From Octopus vulgaris (Eukaryota), in NCBI GenBank assembly GCA_951406725.2, contig OX597833.1, positions 68,076,001-68,140,000 on the forward strand: DNA of 64,000 bases. The letters are read 5' to 3'. Below are positions 13,545 to 45,248 of this stretch, piece by piece (position 1 is the stretch's first letter; each line of letters begins with the position of its first letter). A program made the translations under genes and the position numbers. The notes beneath the pieces were generated by a model. The model saw only the letters and a list, made by a program, of their open reading frames with translations, was not told the DNA's origin and did no database searches.

Positions 13545-13756
13545 AGTCGCCATGATAGATCGGTAGCCACTACACACTTTTTTTTCTCACCTTGTTTCTC
13601 TCCTTGTTATTTTTTTCTATGTCTCTTTCTGTAGAAGAGCGTCGGCTCGAAACCTAAACGACTTTATCTATTCCTGAGCGTTATACTTAATACATCTGTT
13701 TCTTCTTTTGTACACCACCTGTCTTCGTCTTTTGTTTTTTTTTCGTGAACTCTCCC
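13545..13756 (+). mobile_element. HHR-bearing element family A (~200 bp)
   Basis: gtcgccatgatagatcggtagc...ctttctgtagaagagcgtcggctcgaaacctaaa...ttcctgagcgttatac..tacaccacctgtcttcgtc...actctccc(TA)n. HHR at 13625-13660 has a damaged stem III. Confidence 0.8.
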
Positions 13757-14223
13757 TATATATATATTTGTCTCATTTTGTCTCAAAGTCGTTACTGTTT
13801 CCAATTTTATCTTCGTCTCTTGTTTTCCTATTCGTCTCTGTTGTCACATTCTTTCCTTTTCCCAAGGAAATCTAATGCCCATAGCTTAGCTTTTCCTTGG
13901 GGCTGGCCGTTTTGGAGCAAATCTCAGAATTAAACAGCCGAAATTTGCCATGATGAATCGGTTTCTGACTGAAGAATGAAGGCTCCGAATGACTGTCTGT
14001 TTTCCGTATTTCACGTTCTTTATATATAAAGTTTTATTCTAAATATATATGTATATATATATACATAGGGAGAGAGAGAGAAGGAAAGAGAGAGAGGGGA
14101 AGCATATGATAATGCCCCAATCATCAGAAATTCAATCTATAGTTTTACTCTCTTAGTATACTCTTACAAATGAGCTGATAACTTATTCTTATTCTGAATC
14201 TCGTTCCCAATTGACCTAAATTT

Positions 14224-14405
14224 CACACACACACACACACACACACATACACACACATACACACACACACACACACACACACACACACACACACACACAC
14301 ACACACACACACACACACACACACAAACACACACACACACACACACACACACACACACACACACACACACACACACATGGCTGTGTGTGTGTGTGTGTGT
14401 GTGTG
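14224..14405. repeat. (CA)n followed by (TG)n microsatellite
   Basis: Direct reading. Confidence 0.95.
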
Positions 14406-14815
14406 TTGCTGTGTGGTCCATAAATTCATATCAGTTCCTATGCAATTTTTTTCCATCAATGCAGCTCCTCTGTTAAATTAAATCACTTTTATGTATGTGG
14501 TCACTTAACAATAATCGCTAGGCCAGCTACAAAAAAAAAATTGCATTTAGAAAGCCCTCGTATTGAAAGATTGAAAGATCAACCTTCTGAAGACGGAACA
14601 TAAAATTACTCCAAATAAACAGCAAAATTTACTGCGGAATTAACTTTGGTCGTGTGATTGTGCTTGGTCGCAGACGACATGGAAGTTCAGACACCATAAA
14701 CAGTGACGAGGAAAAATAAAAAAAAGCCACACGAACAAATCTGTAAAGTCAGTTTTGGCATAATTCTAGTGGAAGCTTTGTCTTCGAGATTAATAAATAT
14801 TCACCCTTCTTCTTC

Positions 14816-15550
14816 CTGCTGCTGCTGCTGCTGCTGCTGCTGCCACTACTACTACTACTACTACTACTACTACTACTACTACTACTACTACTACTGTTGC
14901 TACTACTACTACTACTACTACTGCTGCTGCTGCTGCTGCTGCTGCTGCTGCTGCTGCTGCTGCTGCTGCTGCTGCTGCCGCTGCTGTTGCTGCTGCTGCT
15001 GCTGCTGCTGCCACCACTACTGCTACTGTTGCTACTAATACTAATACTGCTACTACTATTACTACTAATACTACTACTAATACTGCTACTACTACTACCA
15101 CTACTGTTGCTGCTGCTACTACTGCTACTACTACTACTGCTGCTGCTGCTGCTACTACTACTATTTCTACTAATACTACTAATACTGCTACTGTTGCTAC
15201 TACTACTACTACTACTAATACTGCTACTACTACTACTACTATTGCTACTGTTGCTACTACTACTACTACTACTACTACTATTGCTACTCTACTCTCTCTC
15301 TCTCTGTGCTACTACTACTACTACCACCACTACTGCTACTGTTGCTACTAATACTAATACTGCTACTACTATTACTACTACTACTACTAATACTGCTACT
15401 ACTACTACCACCAATACTGTTGCTACTGCTTGCTACTGCTGCTGCTGCTCTACTACTACTACTACTACTACTACTAATATTGCTAATACTGTTACTGTTA
15501 CTACAAATACTACTACTGCTGCTACTACTACTACTACTACAGATGCTGCT
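14816..15550. repeat. Compound (CTG)n/(CTA)n trinucleotide repeat
   Basis: Direct reading. It accounts for the poly-L/T/C/A/S ORFs. The block ccaccactactgctactgttgctactaatactaatactgct occurs twice. Confidence 0.95.
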
Positions 15551-16189
15551 GTAAATATCTGCCAAATAAATACCCCGATAGTCACCAGACGTTATCAATT
15601 TTTCTGGGATATTCATCACTCTAGCATCTCAGTTGTTTTATCGATTCCATCGATCGAAACGAATGAAAGAATGAATGATATGAGTGAGTGAATAACCAGT
15701 ATGAATGAATGAATGGTTAAGAGATCAAATGTATATTCCTTGTTATATGACAATTTCAATGCAACGTCCATGAAGCGATTCGCAGAGAATGCCCGCTTCG
15801 AAAAGGCTAAGCTCTGACATTCATTTGAATTACGCTTTCAAGAGATCACTTCAGATAAAATGCCAGCTAACAGTTGCCATGCAGATCTTTCGGAAACATT
15901 AACAAATATATTCAAAGGCTGTAATTATAATGCTATTCCAGGTTTATGAGCAAAGCTAGCCATAATTTCTACAGGGGTGGAGAAGAGAGGAGGAGAGGAG
16001 AGTGGAATGGTATGAAGTGGAATGGAGTGTAGTTCGTATTTCGTATTTCACTAGTTTTTCGTTTATTTAAACTTTAAATAAGAGAATTTCTCTAATAGCT
16101 TAAATCTGCATGTGTGGCTAATGCATACAATTATATACATGTACATATTCGTGTACAAGTAAACATACATAGGCATATATGAGCCACTA

Positions 16190-42347: not shown

Positions 42348-43051
42348 TACTCTTTACTCTTTTACTTGTTTCAGTCATTTGACTGCGGCCATGCTGGAGC
42401 ACCGCCTTTAGTCGAGCAAATCGACCCCGGGACTTATTCTTTGTAGGCCCAGTACTTATTCTATCGATCTCTTTTGCCCAACCGCTAAGTAACGGGGACG
42501 TAAACACACCAGCATCGGTTGTCAAGCAATGCTAGGGGTACAAACACAGACACACAAACATATACACACACATACATATATATATATAACAGGAAGCTTT
42601 ATGAAAAGAAACAAAAAACGAAGGCAGGTGGAATACAAAAAAACAATTGTATTAGTATGGCGCTCAGGAATATAAATGAAACAAGTCTTTTACGTTTCGA
42701 GCCTACGCTCTTCAACAGAAAGATACACAGAAAAGAAACACGGAGAGAAACAAGGAGAAAAAAATGCGTGCAGAAGCTAGCGAATCGGGCCGACCAATGT
42801 CTTGTGAGTGGATTTGGTAGACGGAAACTGAAAGAAGCCTGTCGTATATATATATATATATATATATATATATATATATACATATATACGACAGGCTTCT
42901 TTCAGTTCCCGTCTACCAAATCCACTCACAAGGCTTTGGTCGGCCGGGGGCTATAGCAGAAGACACTTGCCCAAGGTGCCATGCAGTGGGACTGAACCCG
43001 GAACCATGTGGTTGGTTAGCAAGCTACTTACCACACAGCCAATCCTGCGCC
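42348..43051 (-). mobile_element. SINE family 1 interrupted at its internal TA tract by a family A element
   Basis: 3' half at 42348-42588 and 5' half at 42888-43051 are colinear with the consensus. Insert spans 42591-42845. Confidence 0.88.
42591..42786 (-). mobile_element. HHR-bearing element family A, diverged subfamily
   Basis: HHR at 42686-42723 on the minus strand: TCTTT-CTGTTGA-A-GAGC GTAG GCTC-GAAA-CG-TA-AAAGA. Downstream ttcctgagcgccatactaatac..ccacctgccttcgt. Confidence 0.8.
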
Positions 43052-43429
43052 TTTGTGTAATTATGCATATTTTTGTGCGCGCTTCTTTTCTTTTATGTTT
43101 ACGAGGATTATTATATACTCTCTTTCTGCTAATACGCGTATTGGAACTGTCCCAATTACGATTTTAAATTTTTGCGTCTGTTTCCTTCCCTCTCAACTTC
43201 ACTGATAAATTTCCGCTTCTCTCTTTTCCCTTTTATTCTACCTTCGCTTCTGTTTTGTGCATGCGTTTAGTCTTTTCAAATCAATTTCTTTCTAACTTAC
43301 TCACATCCATACCTGTTAACCACTCTCAATCTCTCCCTACTTACTTACCTACAGCTTTACCTACGAACCTACTTTCCTATATAAAAAAACATTTCTATCT
43401 ACCTATCCAGCTGTGTACCTATTTACATA

Positions 43430-43910
43430 TATACATACAAATGTACATATACACTGATATATTATTAGGGTTACCTATGTCAAAATATACGTACATGAAT
43501 ATGGGTAACTTATACACACATACAAGTATGTATTTGTACATACATATATATAATGTATATATGTACATGTATATATATACGTTTATATTTATAAATATAC
43601 TTATACATACGTATATATATATATATACATATATATACTTTATTGATACACAATTATATGTACGTGTGTGTATATTTAAGTTATATATATATATATATAT
43701 ATATACTATTTTATATATATAGACATGTATATGTATGTATGTGTATGTATGTATATTATATATATATAAAAGGACACAAACATACATATACGCACATACA
43801 CGCATATATGTATGTGTATGTATGTGTATATATATATATATATATATATATATATATATATATATATATATATATGCATACACACACACACACACATGCA
43901 TACGCACACA
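43430..43910. repeat. Degenerate (TA)/(TG)/(CA) microsatellite region
   Basis: Direct reading. Confidence 0.85.
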
Positions 43911-45130
43911 CAGTGGACACATTATTTTGCCGGAACCAAATCTAATCAAAGAATACATTTCGAAGTTAATGGCATGAAACTCTTTCAAGCACTGAATAAC
44001 TCTCTATGAAATAGATTGAGTTAGGCAGCAGCGAAACTATTACCATTATTTCTACATATTCATTTATTCATTTTACTTATTTTCACTGATTTCCATTTAT
44101 TTATTTATTTATTTATTCATCTATCTACTTATTTATTTATTATTGATCTCATTTACGATCGATTTTTGCCGATGAGTCAAGCGATATCTACTTCAATTAT
44201 TTAAATTGTTTGCCGATCAGAATGACGACTCTGCTATTTTTTTCTTCTTCTTTTTATGAAACCAGGAACGACCGATTCATGTGGAGTGCACTGTTGTCAA
44301 ATCTTATACATATTCATGTTATAGTTGGTGTCATTGTATCCAAGCAAGGCGTGATTGAGAAGTATTATGATCGAAGACATTCCAGACATAATCATCTTTG
44401 CTTTTCGACGATAAAGTCTACGTTATCGAACGGACATTTGACTCATGGTTATTTTGAACGAAAATGATGTGCTTTTGAAGGTTTATGTGACTGAAGCTTG
44501 TAGAAGAGAGGGTATTAATCTAGAACCTATTATGGCCATTATGGCAGTTTACCACTTCTTACAAAATGAGGACCAGATATATAGATGAGCATATAGACTG
44601 ATTGGTGGAGACAGACACATCTATGAATATACAGTACGAATATTTCTGTCTAACCATTTACCATTTACTCTGCATATTCTGTCTTTTTCTTTACACTTAG
44701 TGGAATATATAAGACAAGGTATAAATAATGGCGATTACATAATTTTCTTTATTGCAGTAAATTTATATTGTTAAGCAGAAATGATTTCTCTGGCGAAATT
44801 AGCATTAACTTTTTAAGTCGATCAATTCTTCTCACCCGATCAATGATCCGAGAGAGTAAAGCTATCAATGACAAACCTATTATGACTACCAGAAATAGTT
44901 GTAAGTCACATTTACTACAATAATGATTAAAATAATTGTCATTATTTATTTTATCTTCACTTGTATCCCGCTCTCTTTATGTCTCTGACTCTTTCTGTCC
45001 ATAATCATATATGTGTGTGGTTCACATGTACAAGAAACGAAAGACAGATTGGTGATGGAAAAGTCTTTGATGTTCCGAGCTTTCTCTCTACCATAGACAG
45101 GCATGAGAGGAAAAAATAGAATATACATAT

Positions 45131-45248
45131 AGGAAGAGTTTACGAAAAGAAACAAAAGACAAAAGCAGGTGTACAAAACAATCAGACGTATTAGTATAAC
45201 ACTCAGAAATAGAAAAAGTATTTTACGTTTCGAGCCTACGCTCTTCTA
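45131..45248 (-). mobile_element. Family A element, 5'-truncated inside the HHR core
   Basis: Minus strand (TA)n-tagaagagcgtaggctcgaaacgtaaaa...tctgagtgttatactaatac..gtacacctgc..cgtaaactcttcct. Confidence 0.78.

Follow-up and report, generated by a model that had tools for sequence, protein, structure and literature searches.

Does a hammerhead motif with a changed letter at a supposedly essential core position mark a decaying repeat, or can the change be the fixed trait of a whole family? The question is raised by 64,000 nucleotides of the Octopus vulgaris genome (contig OX597833.1, positions 68,076,001 to 68,140,000; hereafter the window), in which a first-pass annotation made from the letters alone described a dispersed repeat, family A, whose hammerhead core reads CUGU-N-GA, with U in place of A at core position 6 (A6U). 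Analysis of the window, of public assembly contigs and of related motifs revealed a minimal type I hammerhead such as Penelope-like elements (PLEs) carry, with U6 in its core, a letter that is very probably family-wide, and supported the view that A6U characterises the family and is not decay. An abundant family with a selected fold but a change at such a position is a natural experiment, setting cutting against the fold as a protein signal.

Family A and its motif in the window

Family A consists of five dispersed non-coding copies of ~190-215 bp (copies 1 to 5, Table 1). A blastn search with copy 2 (query start 18241) returned all five, where the first-pass annotation had placed them, at 81-88% identity and E ≤ 6e-31, the next match having E = 0.11. 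This amounts to 5 copies per 64 kb, or about 78 per Mb if the window is typical. Three copies have a common 5' start and every copy ends in a T-rich tail followed by (TA)n or a related tract, and the family A unit is therefore a discrete element of ~190-215 bp; insertion at (TA)n is also seen in 182 contigs of public run X5 (see below), which continue from family A into (TA)n. The surrounding DNA is that of an AT-rich animal genome, rich in microsatellites, and the repeats beside family A appear to resemble octopod ones. No open reading frame (ORF) was found in or beside any copy in the window and no transfer RNA gene in the unit, and family A patterns had no match in viral contigs or prokaryote genomes. 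Each of the five window copies is solo, and the aligned contigs, which are short, listed neither a head-to-tail joint nor a pile of contig starts or ends.

On the element strand, the motif comprises a 4-bp stem I, the core CUGU-N-GA, an extra A, a stem II of 4 bp closed by a 4-nt loop, then GAAA, an ACGU palindrome, A17 and the 3' strand of stem I, and a second conserved block lies ~15 nt downstream. The 28-nt motif was matched five times in the window at up to 3 mismatches, vs 0 in 100 shuffles. Compared with the core CUGANGA of PLE minimal hammerheads, six letters fit and position 6 does not. U6 was found in all four complete cores, with A, A, A and U at position 7, as the first-pass annotation had reported; copy 5 is truncated by (TA)n exactly at position 6, so that its U6 is indistinguishable from the tract. 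Stem II and the GAAA core are present in all five copies, again as annotated; in each, stem II begins with the pair G10.1-C11.1 and a single additional base follows A9. U16.1 and a residue other than G at position 17 (A or U) are also kept.

The statement that stems III and I are retained except for damage at 13625 stood in part. The palindrome ACGU is intact in four of the five copies, but its pairing into helix III requires two motifs, and it is not a stem of the monomer, and copies 3 and 5 (24773 and 45131) have lost the outer pair of stem I. Stem I is 4-5 bp long in copies 2 and 4 (motifs at 18305 and 42718) and 3 bp in copy 3 (24841); in copy 1 it is broken by a mismatch, beside a broken palindrome and a loop change. 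The fourth stem I pair is restored by the majority letter in the aligned contigs (83-99%). Cutting of copy 2 is predicted after 18332. In silico, three intact 43-nt segments form stem II with P ≥ 0.99, which does not hold for every full-length fold. Folding z-scores, at -0.2 to -1.9, do not set the motif apart. Two local searches with Rfam hammerhead models returned no match, and no hammerhead occurs among the 150 listed of 368 whole-window Rfam matches.

Position 6 and selection on the motif in public contigs

Regarding the wider family, 4 of 24 listed public runs were aligned to copy 3 at 80% identity, letters being reported from 4%. Runs X5, X14 and X11 contributed 20,523, 4,301 and 379 aligned records, respectively; their depths are sums over assembly contigs, not reads, and hence rough, and the organism code of X5 differs from that of the likely source run. 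A6 accounts for 0.71% (X5), 0.08% (X14) and 2.0% (X11) of depth; at this position neither C nor G reaches the 4% reporting threshold in any of the three runs, so that U6 makes up at least ~91% of depth. An A6 consensus, which the first-pass annotation had named as the result that its claim could not survive, is thereby contradicted in the aligned contig runs. Position 7 reads C, G and U in 14, 13 and 20% (X5), 11, 10 and 33% (X14) and 11, 4 and 18% (X11) of depth, a non-A share of 47, 54 and 33%, and is the only element position with all three alternative letters listed; position 17 is U in 10-24%.

Variation within the motif follows its structure. None of 19 constrained motif positions has a variant of at least 4% in a contig run, vs 5 of 9 free positions, namely N7, the first loop base, 15.2, 16.2 and 17 (Fisher p = 0.0013, with the classes assigned after the table had been seen, though by standard numbering); among flank positions 19 of 79 vary (p = 0.02 against the constrained ones). 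The fold therefore appears to be selected in source copies rather than decaying. Seven of eight stem I positions have no listed variant, and at the two adjoining outer bases variants account for 9-20% per letter. At constrained sites, three CpG letters (the stem II C, C11.1 and G12) stay below 4%, and the seven others in the interior of the element show variants at 6.6-12.5% in X5, an asymmetry that counts for selection because passive CpG decay after insertion should strike all CpGs alike. Three CpGs near the poorly covered element ends likewise have no listed variant. In X5, contig depth reaches its maximum over the motif, at 9.0 M, and is mostly 2-4 M in the flanks; alignment of diverged subfamilies to the motif alone would be expected to give such a profile. 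The four long window copies likewise differ pairwise at 9/168 motif positions (5%) but at 82/351 (23%) in the 5' flank and 83/523 (16%) in the 3' flank, in agreement with the annotated divergence of the flanks. Together with the scarcity of A6 in independent sequencing runs, this excess conservation bears out the annotation's view of A6U as a trait of the family. Family A retains G8 and G12, the residues generally named catalytic, as well as the pair C3-G8 and a cut site that is not G. Two catalytic guanosines are named for the hammerhead in PMC9901934.

Relatives of the motif and kinship with Penelope-like elements

A scan of metagenome data in which any letter was allowed at positions 4, 6 and 7 covered about half of the collection and yielded at least 119 loci. 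Among the 120 matches listed, core position 6 is A in 114 (37 with U4C), C in 4 and U in 2. Stem I is absent from both U6 matches and has at least 3 bp in 64 of the 114 A6 matches, and thus no second U6 family was seen among the matches listed. Of the 114, 35 passed a 3-bp filter and 24 of these form the rows of model R1, whose stem I covariation was not used as evidence since the rows had been chosen for pairing. R1 scores four family A copies at E values of 6e-7 to 1e-4 and the damaged copy 1 at 0.095, its training set having been fetched with a family-A-derived pattern. Its best match (E = 1.5e-8) is the motif at 12948-12974 of the sister element, which has the layout, stem II and second block of family A, but A6 with U4C.

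In locus L047 the motif lies ~670 nt downstream, on the same strand, of an ORF that combines a reverse transcriptase (Pfam RVT_1, E = 5e-8) with an endonuclease-like part and has a CxxC linker, and in locus L009 it lies ~200 nt downstream of a piece homologous to the L047 ORF, so that motif and PLE ORF are linked in 2 of the 119 loci listed. Pfam did not name a GIY-YIG domain in these ORFs, which are probably of the Neptune type, to judge from their motifs and PMC8557442. The largest group of relatives among the matches listed closely resembles the published Neptune motif of A. digitifera. The scaffold of the family A motif is thus akin to PLE motifs, and the element itself is highly likely to be PLE-derived.

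How a U6 hammerhead may be maintained

We consider it an even chance that family A is a non-autonomous PLE derivative with a weakened but working, probably protein-assisted hammerhead. It would be the solo pseudo long terminal repeat (pseudo-LTR) or 3' end of a PLE, probably Neptune-type, whose RNA would be transcribed and recognised in trans by PLE protein; the PLE reverse transcriptase-endonuclease would then copy the RNA and insert it at (TA)n, as suggested by PMC8557442 and PMC11167929. A6U would have been fixed early in the family and would weaken the U-turn, the RNA cutting itself slowly or only with the help of the element protein. Slower cutting is expected because A6C hammerheads are slow in Mg2+ and mutants of the CUGA turn have low activity. 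Every full-length copy spans the cut site, and therefore the template must have been uncut or re-joined RNA, which is why weak cutting might be tolerated or favoured, with selection on source copies retaining the hammerhead. Mobilisation in trans, the Neptune partner, a reduced but non-zero cleavage and a benefit of the slowdown are parts that we infer. The monomer fold is predicted to pair the core with the palindrome in 72 of 89 distinct A6 relatives among the matches listed, and such a rod-like fold may keep solo copies uncut.

Several observations weigh against this account. In the raw-read run X24, aligned to 24771-24964, 9 reads from two loci were obtained out of 1,934 million letters, and one of the loci has A6, which hints that A6 is ancestral; this locus also has breaks in stem II and the palindrome, and the yield of X24 is far below that predicted from the window density despite a species label equal to that of the likely source run. 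X24 probably does not represent the same genome. The 80% identity cut-off can exclude sister families bearing A6. Most element positions also stay below 4%, and the steadiness of U6 alone is no proof of selection on U6 itself. The file of PLE consensus sequences in PMC8557442 does not contain the family A motifs, and an autonomous PLE partner was found neither there nor in the window, where no PLE ORF was detected (best tblastn E = 0.43) and where family A is not adjoined by the ORF with reverse transcriptase and GIY-YIG that accompanies the pseudo-LTR of autonomous PLEs. Lastly, by analogy with a type III pairwise scan in which all single and double changes of the CUGA turn except the C3-G8 swap had low activity without rescue (PMC9901934), the U6 motif may be dead.

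Retention of the fold after cleavage was switched off, as a signal by which the PLE reverse transcriptase-endonuclease picks up its RNA, or else a gating of cutting by protein or a metal other than Mg2+, is possible although unlikely; either version, if true, would mean a non-catalytic or gated role for PLE hammerheads. In its strict form this alternative is the main rival, yet doubtful: cutting by the U6 motif would have ceased, the three-way fold would serve as a binding or loading signal for PLE protein, and the loss of cutting would protect the template. It would accommodate the unrescued CUGA-turn mutants, the insertion in vitro of ribozyme-dead PLE mutants (PMC11167929), the copies that span the cut site, and the fact that A6 was not regained in diverged subfamilies though N7 became every letter. 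However, G8, G12, C3-G8 and a non-G position 17 are kept as catalysis needs them, although a protein that reads the fold might need them too, and position 6 changes can leave measurable activity: the natural A6C hammerhead of phage Bcep176 keeps low activity (PMC3088659), being slow in Mg2+ and rescued by Mn2+ (PMC7151607).

A founder effect, in which a single A6U source was amplified and the apparent conservation reflects few source lineages and alignment bias, is improbable. Other core-changed hammerheads in the window (U4C twice, at 12948 and 36539, and A9U once, at 25267) make the U6 of family A less surprising, and relaxed U-turn positions may be common in short PLE derivatives of this genome; such single changes in neighbouring repeats would suit a founder effect, as would depth shares taken from assembly contigs and Fisher classes set after the table was seen. 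However, the variable sites are N7 with its three letters, loop II, the palindrome and position 17, the stems and core being spared, and neither the CpG asymmetry nor the difference between motif (5%) and flanks (16-23%) in the window is what a founder effect would predict. A fully active U6 core, compensated by the second block or a tertiary contact of the element, is very improbable: strong conservation of the motif, a second block common to the sister element and published natural variants thought to be offset by outside contacts (PMC3088659) are in keeping with it, but no double mutant rescued the CUGA turn (PMC9901934), cleavage of PLE minimal hammerheads requires dimers and is slow even when the core is canonical (PMC4209133), and the second block did not come with U6, since the A6 sister has it too.

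Explanations specific to the U6 letter were rejected. A-to-I editing cannot give A to U. As a splice acceptor, the UAG that U6 creates after a pyrimidine tract would take the A of its AG from position 7, the most variable base, which is non-A in 33-54% of depth, and the aligned contigs listed neither a joint nor a cluster of ends at this site; a PLE intron ending near the hammerhead motif has been reported in Drosophila (PMC4209133). In silico, pairing of U4-G5-U6 with the palindrome has P 0.59-0.98, vs 0.07-0.10 when position 6 is A, but a U6-specific latch was dismissed since in the same 72 of 89 A6 relatives the core masks the palindrome too and the energy gained amounts to 0.2-2.4 kcal/mol; this predicted pairing is at most a side effect.

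Other features of the window

A scan of the window for the minimal hammerhead pattern gave 6 matches, vs 1 in 30 shuffles. The canonical hammerhead repeat at 18446-18600 lies on the same strand as family A copy 2, 16 nt of (TA)n downstream of it. Copy 4 abuts a long inverted repeat (42789-42944), composed of two halves of a common short repeat around (TA)n, which accounts for spurious microRNA matches in the whole-window Rfam search. Beside copy 5, a fragment of a LINE-type (long interspersed nuclear element) reverse transcriptase frame was noted at 45262-45484 (+; Pfam RVT_1, E = 0.0026, below cut-off).

Table 1. Family A copies, hammerhead motifs and related features (window coordinates unless a locus is named).
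Feature	Position	Strand	Remarks
Family A copy 1	13545..13759	+	Full length; motif damaged in palindrome and stem I
Minimal hammerhead C3..H17, copy 1	13629..13656	+	U6 at 13632; model R1 E=0.095
Family A copy 2	18242..18428	+	Full length; flanked by (CATA)n and (TA)n
Intact minimal hammerhead, copy 2	18305..18332	+	U6 at 18308; stem I 18301-18304 with 18333-18336
Family A copy 3	24773..24962	+	Full length; reference onto which public contigs were aligned
Minimal hammerhead, copy 3	24841..24868	+	C3=24841, U6=24844, N7=24845, G8=24846; stem II 24849-52/24857-60, G12=24861, palindrome 24864-67, H17=24868
Second conserved block (copy 3)	24884..24893	+	Exact in 4/5 family A copies and in sister element
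Family A copy 4	42591..42783	-	Divergent 5' part; abuts another repeat
Intact minimal hammerhead, copy 4	42691..42718	-	U6 at 42715; U7
Family A copy 5	45128..45248	-	5'-truncated at core position 6 by (TA)n tract
Sister element in (TA)n	12876..13082	+	Layout, stem II and second block as family A; A6 but U4C
Different hammerhead repeat	18446-18600, core at 18465	+	Canonical CUGAUGA, extra A before GAAA, longer palindrome
Minimal hammerhead-like motif, A9U, no stem I	25267-25294	+	Repeat-like stretch, single copy in window; may be decay
Minimal hammerhead-like motif, U4C	36511-36539	-	Model R1 E=0.009
PLE reverse transcriptase/endonuclease remnants	L047 2076-3627; L009 3348-3940	- (both)	Upstream of canonical A6 hammerheads with stem II of family A

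Comparison with known systems

Regarding published hammerheads, family A is closest to the minimal hammerheads of metazoan PLEs (Cervera & De la Pena 2014, PMC4209133), whose consensus it fits throughout the listed traits apart from position 6; the two share type I topology, an extra base between 9 and 10.1, the G10.1-C11.1 pair, a palindromic 15.2-16.2 for helix III, a 4-bp stem I, a U-rich 5' flank and mostly single dispersed copies, the stem II of the A. digitifera Neptune motif being nearly that of family A. All 56 motifs of Fig. S3 in that source have A6, under a descriptor that largely required it, whereas U6 is family-wide in family A; all cores in File S2 of PMC8557442 are likewise A6, from a search that also largely required A6. 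Entire repeat families that bear a ribozyme are overlooked when the search descriptor makes CUGA obligatory. PMC8557442 further reports that several PLE clades target (TA)n and calls the role of the hammerhead in PLEs unclear.

The comparison with published core variants proposed in the first-pass annotation gave a mixed answer. No natural A6U hammerhead was found in a literature search whose scope excluded Lunse 2017 (PMC5785218), Arkhipova 2017, figure-only data and bioRxiv supplements; PMC11014351 contains no A6U, A6G or A6C string, and the main text of the 2026 repeat annotation of Octopus vulgaris (PMC13282606) has no 'ribozyme'. Other natural changes of the core are known, namely U3-A8 in PLE hammerheads (PMC4209133), U4C (PMC3088659), A9U (PMC10085705) and A6C. 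The A6C hammerhead of phage Bcep176 is, like family A, a natural change at position 6; it is a single phage sequence with C6 that has been assayed, whereas family A has U6 and a minimal helix III, is a high-copy animal repeat and is known from its sequence.

Among mobile elements, non-LTR retrozymes and non-autonomous PLE derivatives (PMC7229834; bioRxiv 10.64898/2026.07.22.740005) are, like family A, short non-coding repeats with type I hammerheads; retrozymes are related to PLE pseudo-LTRs and solo monomers occur, but they are defined by tandem units, in contrast to the five solo copies of family A in the window with their non-canonical core. The PAc Poseidon element of Anolis (PMC11167929) shares a PLE hammerhead and AT-rich targets with family A; its hammerhead cuts only with protein and is dispensable for insertion in vitro, and its template is mostly unprocessed RNA. 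PAc is autonomous, with C3 and G8 tested, whereas the present account of family A is drawn from nucleotide data. Family A is thus neither a new ribozyme class nor a new element class: its scaffold, the PLE minimal hammerhead, is already known, core variants including A6C at the same position have been published, and the family-wide U6 is the feature for which the above literature search gave no published counterpart.

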